A stretch of 64,000 nucleotides of DNA from Candidatus Methanomethylophilaceae archaeon. Its GTDB lineage: Archaea; Thermoplasmatota; Thermoplasmata; Methanomassiliicoccales; Methanomethylophilaceae. Below the pieces are notes generated by a model. It had not been told where the DNA came from. It searched no databases and saw only the letters and a list, made by a program, of their open reading frames with translations. The translations under genes were made by a program, and so were the position numbers. Shown piece by piece: positions 2,538-50,353 of this stretch; position 1 is the first letter of the stretch, and each line of letters opens with the position of its first letter. Where the stretch lies: the NCBI GenBank assembly GCA_050944155.1, contig JBMNQN010000005.1:1-64000 (forward strand), in the 5' to 3' direction.

Positions 2538-2932
2538 GCGATGAAGAGCGTTACGAACAGATTCTGCTGGTTCTCGAAGACCTGGAAGAGATGTCTTACG
2601 ACTGCGTCATTCTCGTGGAAGGACGCAGAGACGTTACCGCACTGAACCATCTGGGTATTTACGGAGATTTTTACACGGTACAGTCTTCCGGCGGACCTCT
2701 GAAAGCCGCGGAATACGTATTTTCCACGAAGAAAAAAGCGGTAATTCTGACGGATTGGGACAGGAAAGGAGACATCATAGCGTCGGATCTGGCAATCCAA
2801 CTGAGCGCTCTGGACATACAGTACGATCTGTCGGTACGCGACCGTTTGGCCAGTCTGTGCAGAATCGACATCAAGGACGTTCAGTCCCTGGACGAGCTGG
2901 TAAATCGTCTGGCGGAAATGAACATACGATAA
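2534..2932 (+). CDS. Small TOPRIM-domain protein (UPF0292-like)
   Basis: ILVEGRRD and ILTDWDRKG TOPRIM motifs. Confidence 0.85.
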   Translation: MSDEERYEQILLVLEDLEEMSYDCVILVEGRRDVTALNHLGIYGDFYTVQSSGGPLKAAEYVFSTKKKAVILTDWDRKGDIIASDLAIQLSALDIQYDLSVRDRLASLCRIDIKDVQSLDELVNRLAEMNIR

Positions 2933-2964
2933 TATACGGATTAAATCATTGGCAGATGTTGGGA

Positions 2965-3549
2965 ATGAAAGGCCGTTTCATAGTTTTCGAAGGCATCGAC
3001 GGTGCCGGAAAAACGACGCTCATCGGAAAACTTGTCGAATATATGGTTTCCGAGGGAAAGAAAGTAAAAACTACCGCCGAACCCACTTCCGAACCCATCG
3101 GCGCTCTCATAAGAAACGGTGCCGCCGGAATGTGCCAGAAGGCCGAAGCGCTGCTTTTCGCGGCCGACCGTGCCTGCCATACGGAACAGATTTCCGACTG
3201 GATGGAGGAAGGATACACAGTGCTGTGCGACAGATACTACGCCTCATCCATGGCGTATCAGTCGGCGGGTTTGGACGGGGATGCGGCGGACCGTGAATGG
3301 CTTGCCGAGATAAACCGTCCCATAATCCGCGAACCGGATATGACCGTACTCCTGGACATAGATCCGGAAACGAGCATGCGCCGCGTGGGGGAACGGGGAG
3401 AAGCGAGCAGATTTGAAAAGACGGAATTCCTGCGCAGAGTGCGCGCCGTATATCTGGAACTGGCATCGGAAAAAGGATTCCGGGTGGTGGACGCTTCCCG
3501 CCCGGAAGAAAATGTATTCGAAGAAGTGCTTAGAATAATAGGTGAATGA
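2965..3549 (+). CDS. tmk: Thymidylate kinase
   Basis: FIVFEGIDGAGKTT P-loop, LLFAADR, CDRYYASSMAYQ. Confidence 0.95.
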   Translation: MKGRFIVFEGIDGAGKTTLIGKLVEYMVSEGKKVKTTAEPTSEPIGALIRNGAAGMCQKAEALLFAADRACHTEQISDWMEEGYTVLCDRYYASSMAYQSAGLDGDAADREWLAEINRPIIREPDMTVLLDIDPETSMRRVGERGEASRFEKTEFLRRVRAVYLELASEKGFRVVDASRPEENVFEEVLRIIGE

Positions 3550-4741
3550 AATGCATCCCGCCGAAGAAATTTATTGCGAAAAGAGCAGCAGACTCAAAGG
3601 AAAAACAGTGGCTCTCGGAATAACCGGAAGCATTGCGGCAACGGAATGTTTCGGCACCGTCAGAGAACTGATCAGACACGGAGCGAAGGTAATCCCGGTA
3701 ATGACTCAGGCGGCCTGCGGCATAGTCACTCCACAAACCATGGAGTTTGCATCCGGAAACGAACCCGTAACCGAACTTACGGGGCAGACGGAACACATTA
3801 AACTGATGGGAGATTCCCGTTCCGCGGACCTTCTTATGATTTATCCGGCCACCGCCAACACGATTTCCAAAATCGCTTGCGGAATCGACGACACACCGGT
3901 CACGTCGCTTGCCACCGTTGCCATAGGAAACGGAATTCCCGTCGCGATAGCTCCCGCGATGCACGAATCCATGCTGAAAAATCCCGCCGTGGCCGCGAAT
4001 CTCGAAAAACTCAAAGAAATGGGTGTCAAAGTGATAGGTCCTTACTGCGAGGGAGGCAGGGCAAAAGTGGCGTCCAGGGAAGAAGTCGTTGCATGGGCGT
4101 TCAAACTTCTCTGCGGAAACGATCTTGACGGCCGTAGCATACTGATTATAGGCGGACGCAGCGAGGAACCCATAGACAGCATGAGGATCATAACCAACCG
4201 TTCCACCGGACTCATGTCCGCGTCTCTGGCGAGAAGAGCCTTCGAAAGGGGTGCCGACGTGGAACTTTGGATGGGAGGTTCCAGCGTAGAATATCCCGGA
4301 TACGTGAAAACCCGCAGATTCGAAACCGTTGCGGATCTTGTGAAAATGGTGGACGGAATAAATCACGAGATTGTAATCGTCCCCGCGGCACTGTCCGATT
4401 TCGCGCCTCTGAAGCCTTTCGAAGGGAAAATACCCAGCGATTCCAAATTCGAAGCGGATTTCACTCCCGTTCCCAAGGTTCTGCCTTTAATCCGCAAAAA
4501 ATGCGACAAAGTCATAGGATTCAAAGCCGAGTCCGGTCTCACGGACGCACAGCTTACGAAACGTGCCAGACAGCGCATGGAACAGTACGATCTGCGTGCA
4601 GTGGTGGCCAACGATATCGACGCGGCGGGAATGTCCGCTTCGTCAGCACTGCTGGTGACTCCAGATTCCGTAAAGGACATATCGGGAACGAAAATCCACA
4701 TTTCGGATTCGATACTCGACTACTGTTCGGAGAACCTATGA
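3542..4741 (+). CDS. coaBC: Bifunctional phosphopantothenoylcysteine decarboxylase/synthetase
   Basis: GITGSIAA, PATANTISKIACGIDD, APAMH, EPIDSMRIITNRSTG, GFKAE, VAND. Confidence 0.95.
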   Translation: MNEMHPAEEIYCEKSSRLKGKTVALGITGSIAATECFGTVRELIRHGAKVIPVMTQAACGIVTPQTMEFASGNEPVTELTGQTEHIKLMGDSRSADLLMIYPATANTISKIACGIDDTPVTSLATVAIGNGIPVAIAPAMHESMLKNPAVAANLEKLKEMGVKVIGPYCEGGRAKVASREEVVAWAFKLLCGNDLDGRSILIIGGRSEEPIDSMRIITNRSTGLMSASLARRAFERGADVELWMGGSSVEYPGYVKTRRFETVADLVKMVDGINHEIVIVPAALSDFAPLKPFEGKIPSDSKFEADFTPVPKVLPLIRKKCDKVIGFKAESGLTDAQLTKRARQRMEQYDLRAVVANDIDAAGMSASSALLVTPDSVKDISGTKIHISDSILDYCSENL

Positions 4742-45065: not shown

Positions 45066-46076
45066 GTGCCCGCTTTGGAAATACCGGAAGAGGACGCGTC
45101 ATCCGTGATACCCATGCTGATTTCTTCCGGAATCGCCGACCGCACCGCAAAAATCTCTTCGAGAGGAAATTACAGAATAGTGCCGATTGTCAGAGAAAGA
45201 ATGCCGGACGCGGAAGCGCTGGGATACGGTATGACCGAAACCGAAGCGCATTCTCTGGAAAGAAGAACTCCCATGGAGCGGATTTACGACATGCTGGCAC
45301 ATCTTCCTTCCGAGGTCAGGGACAGCCTTCCCAGAAAGTGGGAATACGTGGGAGAAATCGTCATTCTCAAACTCGGTAGTCCGTGCGTTCCGTACAGAGA
45401 AGAAATCGGAAAAGCGTACGCTTCCGTACTCGGAGCGTCGACGGTGTGTGCGGACATCAAAGGAATTTCAGGGGAATTCAGAAGACCCAGTACCGAAATA
45501 ATATACGGCAGCACTACGGAATCGGTAAGGCTGGAAAACGGAATACTGTACGATTTCGACGTAACGGAAGTGATGTTTGCTTCCGGAAACACGGACGAAA
45601 GAATGCGCATGAGAAACACCGACTGCAAGGGGGAAACGGTTGTGGACATGTTCGCGGGAATAGGCTATTTCACGCTCCCCATAGCCAAGTATTCCGGCGC
45701 GAGAAGGGTATTCGCGTGCGAGAAAAATCCCGATTCCTACGGATACCTTCTGAAAAACATAAAACTCAACGGAGTATCCGACACAGTGATTCCGATTCTG
45801 GGTGACAACCGGTACATTCCCGGGAAGAAATTTGCCGATAGGATACTCATGGGATACGTTCAGAAAACTTCGGAATTCGTTCCCAAAGCATTGGAAATGA
45901 TACGTCCGGGGGGAATAATCCATTACCACGATACTTTCGCGGTCGGAACCCAGGAACGGAGAATAGACGAAATATTTTCCGGACTGTGCGGATACGAAGT
46001 ACTGGGTATAAGGGAAGTGAAATCCTTCGCCCCCTCCGTTTCCCATTATGTGGCGGACATCAGAATTTCAGACTGA
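45066..46076 (+). CDS. Trm5/TYW2-family SAM enzyme, probably Taw2 aminocarboxypropyltransferase
   Basis: ENGILY, MFASGN..ER, DMFAGIGYF, RILMGY and IIHYH (TYW2-type rather than the Trm5 NLP motif). Confidence 0.8.
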   Translation: MPALEIPEEDASSVIPMLISSGIADRTAKISSRGNYRIVPIVRERMPDAEALGYGMTETEAHSLERRTPMERIYDMLAHLPSEVRDSLPRKWEYVGEIVILKLGSPCVPYREEIGKAYASVLGASTVCADIKGISGEFRRPSTEIIYGSTTESVRLENGILYDFDVTEVMFASGNTDERMRMRNTDCKGETVVDMFAGIGYFTLPIAKYSGARRVFACEKNPDSYGYLLKNIKLNGVSDTVIPILGDNRYIPGKKFADRILMGYVQKTSEFVPKALEMIRPGGIIHYHDTFAVGTQERRIDEIFSGLCGYEVLGIREVKSFAPSVSHYVADIRISD

Positions 46077-47570
46077 TTCTCCGGAACTGCAGGCCGTCAG
46101 CATAGTGTTCATGTTGCTTCTGTAAGATGCGGGGTCCGATTCTATCAGCATTTTTGCGAAAGGAACCAGATATTCCATGAAACCGGTTTCTTCCTTCGAC
46201 ATGGTGAAGGGGTATTTCGCCGAAGGATCGCATGCCGCGAGAAACGCCGCGGAAATCGAACGGGAGCGGCTGTCCTTTGCGAAAGAGCGGTCCAAAGAAC
46301 CCAGAACGAGTTCCGCGCCTCCGACCTTTGCGGCCTTTGCCAAAGAGTCGCACATAACCGTAATCGGACCGGGTCTGCTGAAGGTCGGCAGAGCACCGGA
46401 AACATCCGCCAGAACATATCTCTTTCTCGCATCCGCCAGAACGTCCGAGGGAACGCTTTTGGAAACGTCTCCCATTTCGGCCGCAATCTCCGCCGAAGTG
46501 CTGAGTTCGATTATTTTGGAGTAATTGTTTTCCCAAAGGGCCGTCAGAGCTTCGTTGGATCTTTCCGTTCTTATGACCACGGGAACGGGATTCGCCGACA
46601 GGAATCTGCGGAGGGATTCGACATCCTCTGCGGGTCCTTTGAGTTCGGACAGGAATTTTTCCAGATTCGAACCGTAATTCTGTTTTCCTATTATGTACGT
46701 GGCGTCGCCGCTGCTTTTCAGATCTCCCATTCCGGTTTTCATAACCGATTCTATGAGGCTTCTGTCGGTAGTTTTGCCGGCGGCATACTTTTTCAGGTCT
46801 TCCCCGGTAATCGGAACTCTTCCGTCCTCTCCTTCTTTACGGTACTTGTGTACGACCGCCACCTCGAAATCGTCCAGAGGATCGACGGCCGATATTCTGG
46901 AAATGAGGAACTGAAGGGTGGAAATGTCTTTGGCGCATTCGGAACAGATACGGACTGTTTCGCCGAGGGATTTTATTTTGATACGGACGGACGCAAGGGC
47001 TTCGTGTCCGCAGTCCAATCCGTCGTTTTTGAATTTATACGGTGTTTCGCCGAACGTATCGCAGAGATAATCTTCCGGCATGTTCCTGGTATCCGAACAT
47101 ACCAGGTCGTCTCCGAAAGAGTAGAGATAAAGGTGGTTTTTCTTGACGAACGTGTTGTAAAGCATCAGGCGCTTTTTCGGGTCGTTGTGATACTGACAGC
47201 CAATCAGCTTGTCCGCACCCACCGTTCCCCTGACGGCATAAGAAATTTTTTCATCGCCCAGTTTGGCGGTTGCGAGCAGAGGAATGTTTCCGGCGGCGGC
47301 GAGAGAAATCGTTCCCGCATACGCTCTCGCTATGTCGTCTCCGCCTTTCGACGCACTCTTTATCAGCGTATCGGCGTCGCCCGCATGAGTCGAAATAATA
47401 TCTATTTCTTTGAAAACTTTGTCGAAATGGCATTTCCTGCAGTTTCCCGCGCACATGGGTCTCAAAATCCCGGGATTCGCCGCCAGCTCCGAAGAACAAT
47501 CCAAGAGTTCGTCTTCCAATCTTTTGGAAGTGTGGCGTACACCTCTCATCCTGACGCGTTTCCTTGCCAT
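46068..47570 (-). CDS. Hypothetical 500-aa protein with Cys/His clusters
   Basis: Long ORF with a GGAGG RBS; CAGNCRKCH, GCQYH, DCGH, CSEC. Confidence 0.8.
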   Translation of the reverse strand: MARKRVRMRGVRHTSKRLEDELLDCSSELAANPGILRPMCAGNCRKCHFDKVFKEIDIISTHAGDADTLIKSASKGGDDIARAYAGTISLAAAGNIPLLATAKLGDEKISYAVRGTVGADKLIGCQYHNDPKKRLMLYNTFVKKNHLYLYSFGDDLVCSDTRNMPEDYLCDTFGETPYKFKNDGLDCGHEALASVRIKIKSLGETVRICSECAKDISTLQFLISRISAVDPLDDFEVAVVHKYRKEGEDGRVPITGEDLKKYAAGKTTDRSLIESVMKTGMGDLKSSGDATYIIGKQNYGSNLEKFLSELKGPAEDVESLRRFLSANPVPVVIRTERSNEALTALWENNYSKIIELSTSAEIAAEMGDVSKSVPSDVLADARKRYVLADVSGALPTFSRPGPITVMCDSLAKAAKVGGAELVLGSLDRSFAKDSRSRSISAAFLAACDPSAKYPFTMSKEETGFMEYLVPFAKMLIESDPASYRSNMNTMLTACSSGESV

Positions 47571-47645
47571 ACAACCTCCAACGGCGAAGTAGGTAATAAT
47601 CTGCTTGGTCAGCGGGCTGAAATAATCGGTCGGGGATTACCGTAC

Positions 47646-48143
47646 ATGGATTGTGAGGAACTGCACGAAAGAAACGTAAGGGAGTTCCTGGCAAAACCCC
47701 CGTTCGGATACCGGAACATTCCCTCCGGACAAATCGGACTGTTCGCTTCCGCTTTCGTGCACGACAGCTATTCCAACGAATCGGGAGCAATCAGCAACGA
47801 ACGCCTCGAATTTCTCGGTGACGCGGTTCTGGAACTGGCGGCCTGCCGTTACGTGTACTCCCTGACGGATTACGGCGAAGGAAAAATGACCGATTTCAAG
47901 CAGAGCATAGTATGCAACCGCAGAATTTCGGAATCTTTGATTTCCTACGGTTTGGATATCGACGGCATAATGATGGTGGGCAACGGTCACAGAGATTAGG
48001 TTACCGGAATTCCGATTGTGAACGAAAACATGAGGGCGGACGCTTTTGAGGCACTGCTTGCCGCAATATATCTGACGTACGGTTTCGAAGAAGTTTTCAG
48101 AATAGTCCGGGATATTCTGATCGATCCGAAAAGGAACGGTTAA
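47646..48143 (+). CDS. rnc: Ribonuclease III catalytic domain (no dsRBD) with an in-frame TAG at 47997-47999, probably read as pyrrolysine
   Basis: HDSY...NERLEFLGDAVL precedes the TAG. The same frame continues VTGIPIVNENMRADAFEALLAAIYL...RNG-TAA; 165 aa in total. Confidence 0.88.
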
Positions 48144-48183
48144 CTAAGACACGTATATAAAAAGAGAAGGAGATTTCGGGGAC

Positions 48184-49107
48184 GTGACGGCAGCAGAGAA
48201 AACGGCAGAAGACATAAAAAGCATGAAAATCCGCGGTGCGGGGAGAATTGCCCGCGCATCCGCCGCGGCGATGGGAGACTTTGCGGAAAATTACACGGGC
48301 GGCAGTCTGGAAGATTTCCGTAAAGAAGCCGGGAAGAACGCAGAGATACTCATAGCCTCCCGTCCCACTGCGGTATCCCTCTGGAACGGCGTCAAAGCGT
48401 CGATGAAGGGACTCGAGGACGCTTCCGATCTGAACGAGGCGAAGGAACTCGTACGCAGAAACTCGGAAGCATTCGTCAAAGCCTCGTCCGAAGCCGTGGA
48501 CAGGATAGCGAAAATAGGCGCCAAGAGAATCGAATCCGGCGACGTCGTGATGACCCACTGCAACAGCAGTGCGGCTCTGGGCGTAATCAAGGAAGCGCAC
48601 AGGCAGGGAAAGGAATTCGAAGTCTACGCGACCGAGTCCCGTCCATGGAGGCAGGGAATACTGACGGTCAGAGAACTTGCCGCCGAAGGAATCCCCGTCA
48701 CGATAATCATAGACAGCGCCGTGAGAACCGTTATGAAAAAGACCGACAAAGTTTTCGTGGGAGCCGATACGATAACTTCGCACGGCGCACTGGTAAACAA
48801 AATCGGGACGTCACAGCTGGCACTTGCTGCCCACGAAGCCCGCGTTCAGTTTTACGTATGCAGCGAAACGTACAAATTTTCGCCTGCGACGATTTTCGGA
48901 GATCTGGTCACCATAGAAGAAAGAGATACCGGGGAAGTGGTGCGCGACGGAGAGATCCCCGATTCCGTGAAGATATTCAATCCTGTGTTCGACAGTACTC
49001 CGGCGGCATACATCGACGCAATCATAACCGAAGTGGGGGTAATCCACCCCGGCTCCGTTTACGAGATAATGGTCGGACAACTGGGAAGAAATATATTCGG
49101 AGAGTGA
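48184..49107 (+). CDS. Ribose-1,5-bisphosphate isomerase (eIF2B-like)
   Basis: IRGAGRIA, RPTAVSL, MTHCNS, TESRP, GADTI, NKIGT, NPVFD; adjacent to rbcL. Confidence 0.93.
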   Translation: MTAAEKTAEDIKSMKIRGAGRIARASAAAMGDFAENYTGGSLEDFRKEAGKNAEILIASRPTAVSLWNGVKASMKGLEDASDLNEAKELVRRNSEAFVKASSEAVDRIAKIGAKRIESGDVVMTHCNSSAALGVIKEAHRQGKEFEVYATESRPWRQGILTVRELAAEGIPVTIIIDSAVRTVMKKTDKVFVGADTITSHGALVNKIGTSQLALAAHEARVQFYVCSETYKFSPATIFGDLVTIEERDTGEVVRDGEIPDSVKIFNPVFDSTPAAYIDAIITEVGVIHPGSVYEIMVGQLGRNIFGE

Positions 49108-49111
49108 AAAT

Positions 49112-50353
49112 ATGACGGAATATTCTTATCTGCATTTGGGAGACGAAGCGGACCCGCATACCGACGTGGTCTGCAGATATAAAGTAACAACCGACCTGCC
49201 AATCGAAAAGGCGGCGGAAGCCATAGCGGCGGAACAGTCCACCGGAACGTGGACGGGAATATCGACCCTCACGGGCTCCATTCTGGAAAAGTACGGCGCA
49301 AGAGTTCTTGCCATAGAGGGAAACGAAGTAACCGTGGCGTTCCCGGACGCGGATTTCAGCATCGATGTGGGAGGAGTTCCGCAGATACTCAGCGTCATTG
49401 CGGGAAACCTCTTCGGCCTGGAAGCGCTGAAAGGCGTAAGGCTCGAAGACGTCGAATTTCCGACGAGCATAAAGTCCCAGTACAAAGGTCCCAGGTTCGG
49501 AGACGAAGGACTCCGTAAAATACTGAACAGACCCGAGAAGCCGCTTATCGGAACCATAGTCAAACCGAAGATAGGGCTTTCTCCGAAGGAAACCGCCAAG
49601 TACGTTTACGAAGCGGGCGCGGGAGGGCTCACCAACGGCAAGGACGACGAGACGCTCGTGAATCAGAAATTCTGTCCCATGCAGGACCGTACCGTCGCAA
49701 TCGCCGAATCCCTGGACAGACTGGCGTCAGAGGGCCACAGAATGATTCACGCAATCAACGTGAGCACAAACGGCGACAAAATTCTGGAAGTCGCGGAAAA
49801 AGCTCAGGAATGGGGAGCCTCGCAACTCATGGTGGACGTTATCACCTGCGGATTCGGAGCGGTTCAGGCTCTGGCCGAAGACCCGTCGATAAAGGTCCCG
49901 ATTCACGTTCACAGAACCATGCACGGAGCCATGACCAAAAATCTGGACCACGGAATCGCCATGCTTCCTATGGTGAAACTGGTAAGAATGTGCGGAGGAG
50001 ACGCTCTCCACATAGGAACCCTCGGAGCCGGAAAGATGACCGGCGACGTGAAAGGCGACCACGACAACCTGGACGCATGCCTCGATCCGTCCCAGCCCTA
50101 CAGAAAAGTCATGCCCGTATGTTCCGGCGGAGTTTATCCCGGAATGCTGGAGAAGATGGTGAAATCTTCCGGATTCAACGTTCAGATACAGGCGGGAGGA
50201 GGCGTTGCCGGCCATCCCGGAGGAGTGAGAAAGGGCGCAATGGCAATGAGCCAGGCGATAGATTCCATATTCGACGGAATCCCCCTGAAAGAATACGCAA
50301 AAACCCACAAAGAGCTGTCTCAGGCTCTCGACAAATGGGGACTGAAAGAATGA
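49112..50353 (+). CDS. rbcL: RuBisCO large subunit, archaeal form III-type
   Basis: AAEQSTGTW, AGNLFG, GTIVKPKIG, KDDE, HVHRTMHG, LHIGT..GKM, SGG, QAGGG...HP; catalytic residues are present. Confidence 0.92.
   Translation: MTEYSYLHLGDEADPHTDVVCRYKVTTDLPIEKAAEAIAAEQSTGTWTGISTLTGSILEKYGARVLAIEGNEVTVAFPDADFSIDVGGVPQILSVIAGNLFGLEALKGVRLEDVEFPTSIKSQYKGPRFGDEGLRKILNRPEKPLIGTIVKPKIGLSPKETAKYVYEAGAGGLTNGKDDETLVNQKFCPMQDRTVAIAESLDRLASEGHRMIHAINVSTNGDKILEVAEKAQEWGASQLMVDVITCGFGAVQALAEDPSIKVPIHVHRTMHGAMTKNLDHGIAMLPMVKLVRMCGGDALHIGTLGAGKMTGDVKGDHDNLDACLDPSQPYRKVMPVCSGGVYPGMLEKMVKSSGFNVQIQAGGGVAGHPGGVRKGAMAMSQAIDSIFDGIPLKEYAKTHKELSQALDKWGLKE

Follow-up and report, generated by a model that had tools for sequence, protein, structure and literature searches.

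An in-frame TAG codon, polymorphic with CAG, in an archaeal RNase III-domain gene is probably read as pyrrolysine

[quoted passage not shown] The same preprint describes Pyl as conserved and catalytic in MtmB, MtbB and MttB, and for 'Ca. Methanomethylophilus alvus', where TAG accounts for 1.6% of stops, Borrel et al. 2014 predicted a further 16 Pyl proteins (PMC4153887). The phenomenon is already known, and the general situation of TAG read as Pyl has been published for relatives in the family to which the archaeon analysed here belongs. RNase III, the other system with which our locus invites comparison, is described as only sporadic in Archaea (PMC3867540). Among the matches listed by a literature search on RNase III and Mini-III in archaea there was no Methanomassiliicoccales paper, and the words 'ribonuclease' and 'RNase' have no occurrence in the main text of the Code 34 preprint, whose tables S9/S10, with 1903 predicted Pyl proteins, may list the family.

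Here we describe an RNase III-domain gene with an in-frame TAG in a genome of 1.04 Mb (27 contigs, rated 92% complete), located in the window, by which we mean the whole stretch of 64,000 nucleotides analysed; among the named homologues of the nuclease, the nearest carry the label Methanomethylophilaceae. The genome shares with the Code 34 archaea and 'Ca. M. alvus' the order, a full pyl cassette and the near-absence of TAG as a stop. The gene itself resembles the internal-TAG ('Category 1') genes of Code 34 in having homology on both sides of the TAG, an extension of more than 15 aa (47 aa in the nuclease), a presumed Pyl position that is not conserved and a standard annotation that truncates the protein. 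In contrast to the Code 34 cases supported by proteomics, its Pyl is predicted from sequence and its TAG is polymorphic with CAG, and whereas codon and decoding machinery are those of MtmB, MtbB and MttB, position 118 of the nuclease is variable. What is new is that the TAG is seen as a polymorphism against CAG inside one species; the place of the codon, in what would be an RNA-contacting loop, is likewise particular to this case.

The frame begins with an ATG at 47646 on the plus strand, meets the TAG at codon 118 after ...GNGHRD, and remains open for 47 further codons up to the TAA at 48141-48143, in agreement with the frame and coordinates given in an earlier note on this DNA. Its features are as follows.

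47646-48143, plus strand: RNase III-domain gene, read through the TAG; 165 codons and TAA, nuclease domain only.
47796-47822, plus strand: first catalytic signature NERLEFLGD (N51-D59), before the TAG; R53-D59 invariant and E52 at least 90% conserved among 48 sequences.
47970-48023, plus strand: inter-helix loop with codon 118 (residues 109-126), without a long helix by DSSP; block 111-120 has pLDDT 91.
47997-47999, plus strand: in-frame TAG, codon 118; base 47997 is polymorphic, T giving TAG and C giving CAG (Gln).
48039-48050, plus strand: second catalytic pair D132...E135 (DAFE), after the TAG, in helix 127-145.

An opening of 47 codons has a chance of about 0.3, as estimated from the TAA, TGA and TAG frequencies of the genome, and is not significant alone, so it is domain continuity and not ORF length that lifts this reading above chance. 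In Pfam searches, residues 1-117 match profile positions 4-83 of the 128 in PF14622 (E 1.3e-14), and the 47 aa past the TAG match positions 93-125 (E 3.9e-5), resuming where the N-terminal part ends. The read-through product forms a single PF14622 stretch over positions 4-124 (E 9.2e-23), also matches PF00636 (E 2.8e-17), and passes the curated RNase III cut-offs of Pfam (PF00636/PF14622) with 81.3 bits (cut-off 35) and 63.8 bits (cut-off 27); taken by themselves, the 117 aa before the TAG also exceed both (54.9 and 44.4 bits). Mean identity to 40 archaeal homologues is 55.9% before the TAG and 55.8% after it, and identity to P0002, from the next species on record, is 83% on either side of the TAG; the extension after the TAG measures 47 aa.

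The RNase III signature plus the second D...E pair is complete only if the TAG is read through, because D132 and E135, two of the active site's five acidic residues, are encoded downstream of it. E55, D59, F134, E135 and A136 do not vary across the 48 aligned rows, while D132 is at least 90% conserved. This bears out the earlier description of two intact catalytic motifs divided by the TAG, with E52/E55/D59 before and D132/E135 after. Residue 118 itself lies in the non-helical segment 109-126, directly ahead of the helix 127-145 that bears D132 and E135, in an AlphaFold2 model (helices by DSSP) that has the all-helical fold of the nuclease domain (mean pLDDT 93.8, pTM 0.90) and an extra N-terminal helix at residues 3-16. 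The counterpart of the codon 118 region in bacterial RNase III (rows P0108, P0112 and P0116) is the variable GKGE...GG loop, and among the 48 rows the column of codon 118 holds 16 gaps, 13 Pro, 9 Lys (one of them a placeholder), 5 Arg, 2 Gln, 2 Asn and 1 Ser. Both the variable column and the modelled loop accord with the variable loop that had been suggested for the TAG from the DNA. RBM4 has been described as a short segment of the nuclease domain that is not conserved and varies in both length and sequence; in Aquifex it contacts the RNA backbone via R97, ten residues ahead of D107 (PMC3074117, PMC3867540). From these passages and residue counting, codon 118 would fall in or beside the equivalent of this loop.

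The top Foldseek matches of the model are bacterial RNase III nuclease domains (1o0w with probability 1.00 and TM 0.73, 3o2r, 2a11, and the Aquifex and E. coli complexes). There are 51 PDB matches at E <=0.001 and, among those listed, all are titled RNase III, Ribonuclease-three-like, Dicer or Drosha, bar two mitoribosome chains. With bacterial class 1 RNase III (Aquifex aeolicus 2EZ6, E. coli 7R97, Thermotoga maritima 1O0W) the protein has in common the nuclease fold (Foldseek probability 1.00, TM 0.64-0.75), the ERLEFLGD signature and the D...E pair; it differs in a loop that is 2-3 residues longer, in the extra N-terminal helix and in its archaeal host. Unlike bacterial rnc, it is without a dsRNA-binding domain: there is no PF00035 match, and the TIGR02191 match, which covers profile positions 12-138 of 219, reaches 97.6 bits, below the cut-off of 166.25. 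Judged by these profile matches, the protein has an RNase III domain but is no classical RNase III. In outline it resembles Mini-III (MrnC) of Bacillus subtilis, which also has a lone nuclease domain, no dsRBD and a presumed homodimeric form. No Mini-III chain is named among 36 PDB sequence matches or among the Foldseek matches listed (E <=0.001). The closest PDB matches are classical RNase III and Drosha domains, and the Pfam and NCBIfam results contain no Mini-III-specific model, in databases where a separate model may not exist. The substrate described for Bacillus Mini-III, the 23S rRNA precursor (PMC3867540), is not transferable to the archaeal nuclease.

The pyl system that had been expected for this archaeon is present in the genome, with pylT, pylS, pylB, pylC and pylD all found. 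Contig C25 carries, in order, the 3' end of mtmB, a tRNA-like cloverleaf, pylS, pylB, pylC and pylD. PylS, which is the short form without the N-terminal domain, scores 273 bits, PylB 420, PylC 300 and PylD 205, and all exceed the NCBIfam cut-offs. We take the cloverleaf, which is 71 nt long with a CUA anticodon and lies about 20 nt upstream of pylS, to be pylT on the grounds of its shape, anticodon and position; its fold energy is no better than that of shuffles (z -1.02), and tRNA-Pyl was not detected by ARAGORN in the whole genome or on the pyl contig, nor by Rfam on the pyl contig. As a control for known Pyl proteins we looked for the methylamine methyltransferases and, in this 92% complete assembly, found neither MttB nor MtbB, and of MtmB a single copy cut off by a contig end, of which the last 159 profile positions are present; the assembly thus offers no Pyl codon of a known Pyl gene as a positive control.

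On the same contig, the TAG that closes pylB (1562-2617) is separated by one base from the ATG of pylC (2619-3779), and reading through it would add 19 residues to PylB and create a 59-nt overlap with pylC in another frame. With PylB ending in TAG, the starting enzyme of Pyl synthesis has a Pyl-dependent C-terminus in this genome.

We applied the genome-wide Code 34 criteria with a home-made gene caller and not with the authors' pipeline. Under the standard code, this weak caller, which is based on codon usage and start-trimmed and from whose output shadow ORFs were removed by eye, gave 1029 genes, of which 769 end in TGA, 253 in TAA and 7 in TAG; reading through the seven TAG ends produced an out-of-frame overlap of more than 60 nt in none of them (0/7). 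At least two of the seven, the nuclease gene and an MscS-type channel, end at what are internal TAGs. With TAG called as a sense codon, 38 of 1027 ORFs contain TAG, most of which we judged from the Pfam table to be over-long starts or shadow ORFs. Passes ranked by ORF length or raw codon-usage score were too noisy and were abandoned; they had given 182 and then 52 TAG-holding ORFs, again mostly shadows or over-long starts. Continuous Pfam alignment across an in-frame TAG was seen in three genes, namely the nuclease and the following two, which we regard as further candidate Pyl proteins of this genome.

Contig C12, 12291-13661: Orc1/Cdc6 replication initiator, TAG at codon 85, within an AAA_16 stretch (78-215) in the conserved N-terminal AAA region.
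Contig C16, 14497-15114: MIP-family channel, TAG at codon 124, within a Pfam stretch over 2-197.

As a control, ORF pairs were joined across a single stop, subject to a score of at least 0.15 per codon on each side. A Pfam stretch bridges the junction in 0 of 20 TAA, 0 of 88 TGA and 1 of 8 TAG cases; at the TAA and TGA junctions, domains finish just before the stop and new domains start just after it. The idea of a recoding device specific to this gene was not sustained, given that TAG is rare as a stop across the genome and that other conserved genes hold an internal TAG.

The TAG is not peculiar to the assembly in hand. A 117-aa protein identical to the N-terminal part (P0003) is on record from 29 contigs, so that the gene is already truncated by standard annotation, as had been anticipated. 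Assembled DNA contigs from two runs of other studies (X8 and X11; bioreactor and landfill) span the whole 1401-base stretch around the gene with 1 and 2 differences from the window elsewhere and none at 47997. In X8 the contig reaches a word depth of about 750, and 14 DNA runs contain half or more of the words sampled from the locus. These are assembled contigs, not raw reads, and since the TAG is kept in both, an error peculiar to one assembly is excluded. In the same 90% cluster, a 165-aa protein (P0122), on record from 8 contigs, is identical to the read-through product except for Gln118, so the TAG form is the commoner of the two on record (29 vs 8 contigs). The C allele also occurs in a metatranscriptome contig (X15; depth 2.8, with the base 33 letters from the contig end), which is the sole RNA contig that bridges codon 118; another RNA contig (X16) begins after the TAG and covers 48004-48172, so a transcript of the TAG allele is seen in neither. 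Codon 118 is a C/T polymorphism, TAG vs CAG, within the species. In the next species on record (P0002 and P0123; 81-82% identity) the residue is Pro, which makes a single-step path from Pro through Gln to TAG plausible. The TAG and CAG alleles encode otherwise identical proteins, and within-species dN/dS has no measurable value on either side of the TAG. Selection since the TAG arose is therefore not measurable, and a fresh null allele would look alike.

Searches with the read-through protein gave a match in every one of the 15 genus genomes sampled, in 21 of 24 sampled family genomes (the window's own not counted) and in 1 of 16 genomes sampled elsewhere in the order. The nuclease was not found in the other 3 of the 24 family genomes, all about 99% complete, nor in the remaining 15 of those 16 genomes, and over evolutionary time the gene has been dispensable. 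TAG stands at the site of codon 118 in none of 22 other orthologous loci, which, together with the CAG allele within the species, speaks against Pyl118 being a conserved residue. An orthologue in a sister species (genome G005, locus L013) has an independent TAG, which replaces a conserved Ser near the N-terminus (TCG in the sister species) 13 codons before the catalytic signature. The codons after its TAG differ from those of the nearest relative by 6 synonymous and 2 non-synonymous changes, a pattern that is consistent with continued constraint but undatable, and a weak stand-in for within-species dN/dS.

In six orthologues of the genus a TAG precedes the stop by three codons, with a conserved x-R-I after it. 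We rejected this tail as a sign of translation past the TAG, given that the same bases (ACGTAT[T/A]TAA) form a TATA-like box before the downstream gene, and this box is kept in all loci, including those that lack the TAG, as well as beyond the window's own stop. In the window, the ACACGTAT(A/T)TAA element lies at 48150-48163, just after the stop, whereas in most relatives of the genus it overlaps the last codons and stop of the nuclease; it is probably the TATA box of the downstream aIF-2B-family gene. Because the element lies after the stop of the window's nuclease, the C-terminus of this protein differs from those of its relatives.

The neighbours of the nuclease gene encode a TRM5/TYW2 methyltransferase, an aIF-2B-family protein and a RuBisCO-like protein. 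The last two lie at 48184-50353 of the window, where the aIF-2B-family protein (PF01008, E 5e-89) is followed by the homologue of the RuBisCO large chain (PF00016, E 3e-63), a pairing that we take to be the one of AMP salvage in archaea. An ORF of 500 aa on the minus strand at 46068-47570, divergent from the nuclease gene, scores well as coding sequence and matches no Pfam family at E <=0.001. Beyond the sampled genomes, a single-protein query for related loci returned no match, and the matches listed by an alignment-based locus search were mostly bacterial RNase III genes, with two Methanomicrobiales records and no close relatives. These two records, from a Methanoculleus sp. and a Methanomicrobiales MAG (L119 and L124), align at 35% identity over residues 8-159 and 11-154, and RNase III-domain genes in Methanomicrobiales place the family in more than one methanogen order. 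In another genome of the family (G018, locus L030, 1057-2013, minus strand), a 319-aa frame holds two tandem RNase III domains (PF14622, 2 stretches, E 4e-26), which is the Dicer/Drosha-like arrangement of an intramolecular dimer, in an archaeon.

Based on the domain continuity, the pyl cassette and the genome-wide TAG pattern, we propose that the TAG is most likely read as pyrrolysine, giving the whole 165-aa nuclease. The host is a small-genome methanogen with pylT, pylS, pylB, pylC and pylD in which TAG has been nearly purged from gene ends, and in which a recent C-to-T change would have turned CAG (Gln118) into TAG without killing the gene. Pyl-tRNA(CUA) would then place pyrrolysine at 118, translation would reach the TAA 47 codons on, and the 165-aa product would be expected to form homodimers and cleave double-stranded RNA as its family members do, with E52/E55/D59 and D132/E135 in its active site. 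Pyl would be tolerated at 118 because this surface loop varies in length and sequence among relatives. The TAG allele would be a recent, probably near-neutral variant alongside the Gln allele and not an adaptation; the existence of the Gln allele and the variable residues in relatives indicate that Pyl118 is recent and probably neutral, and not a conserved functional residue. We consider it likely that all of these steps hold jointly, from the recent CAG-to-TAG change and decoding by Pyl-tRNA(CUA) to a near-neutral Pyl118 protein that dimerises and cuts double-stranded RNA like its Gln118 sibling. The anatomy of the gene, the pyl genes, the genome-wide TAG pattern and the polymorphism are observed, and pyrrolysine insertion at codon 118, its efficiency and the activity of the product are what we infer. 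The Pyl-containing nuclease put forward in the earlier note is thus supported in part: it is no special device of this gene, and its residue is not conserved.

Read-through may be incomplete. In M. acetivorans, UAG is described as read both as stop and as Pyl (PMC12626013), and by this ambiguity part of the nuclease product may be an inactive 117-aa fragment. Taken to its extreme, this would make the TAG a null allele, at which translation mostly or always terminates, leaving a fragment without D132/E135; a common strain of the species would have lost a dispensable nuclease by a recent nonsense mutation, with downstream decay not yet visible. Such an allele is favoured by the identity of the TAG and CAG proteins elsewhere, by which the mutation is young, by the ambiguity of UAG in M. 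acetivorans, and by the failure to find the gene in 3 of 24 family genomes and 15 of 16 from the rest of the order, by which loss is tolerated; within the genus, however, the gene is kept in every sampled genome (15/15), and the TAG form is the commoner one on record and was found in several studies. Nor does the distribution of TAG look like that of random nonsense mutations, for it is avoided at gene ends (7/1029) and found inside other conserved domains, whereas TAA and TGA interrupt domains in 0 of 108 junctions. The sequence after the TAG has no PYLIS-like fold (z +0.88; 171 of 200 shuffles fold at least equally well), which would suit termination, but a PYLIS is described as unnecessary for Pyl insertion (bioRxiv 10.1101/2024.09.30.615893). 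We therefore regard simple loss of function as unlikely, while noting that termination and read-through can both be partly true if read-through is incomplete.

A role for the TAG in regulation, as raised in the earlier note, appears very improbable. Partial read-through would here track Pyl-tRNA supply or methylamine use, active nuclease and dsRNA processing would be tied to it, and the TAG would be maintained by selection. The general idea of Pyl-supply dependence had already been raised by Borrel et al. 2014 (PMC4153887); the expression of Pyl genes is described as tuned to demand in M. acetivorans (PMC12626013, PMC13663744), the pylB of this genome itself ends in TAG, and the TAG allele is frequent. 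Against this, the site is unconserved, with TAG in 0 of 22 orthologous loci, the species retains the CAG allele, residue 118 is variable, and no gene among the neighbours links the nuclease to methylamine metabolism. That TAG/CAG at codon 118 is a natural switch and not drift, whether because nuclease dose follows the charge of Pyl-tRNA or because the long electrophilic side chain of Pyl, in a loop that contacts the RNA backbone near the cleavage site, alters the choice of RNAs for binding or cleavage, is likewise a long shot; if true, it would be the first role of Pyl in nucleic-acid recognition or dosage control outside the methyltransferases, and the dose version would couple dsRNA turnover in TAG strains to methylamine metabolism. 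We give practically no credence to an artefact, be it a sequencing or assembly error at the TAG or a real gene on the minus strand at 47637-48224. The first two gene-calling passes, by length and by raw score, did choose this antisense ORF over the nuclease gene and were replaced by the start-trimmed version, but the ORF has no Pfam family at E <=0.001 and holds a TAG itself, while the plus strand matches RNase III at E 9e-23, and 29 contigs as well as two independent DNA assemblies show the TAG.

Decoding of the TAG as pyrrolysine, the reading that we prefer, has consequences both for annotation and for the view of how Pyl codons arise. The 117-aa record would be an artefact of translation table 11, and gene calling should treat TAG as sense at this locus. 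The proteins that probably carry pyrrolysine outside the methylamine methyltransferases would gain one more family, that of an archaeal nuclease with an RNase III domain. The Gln118 and Pyl118 forms in the same background would offer a natural pair for read-through efficiency and for the cost of Pyl in a protein that is not a methyltransferase. Borrel et al. 2014 postulated that, where suppression is strong, a newly arisen amber codon becomes stable as a mutation (PMC4153887), a step that the TAG/CAG pair exemplifies: with the TAG and its CAG parent coexisting in an identical protein background, the codon appears to have been caught on arrival.
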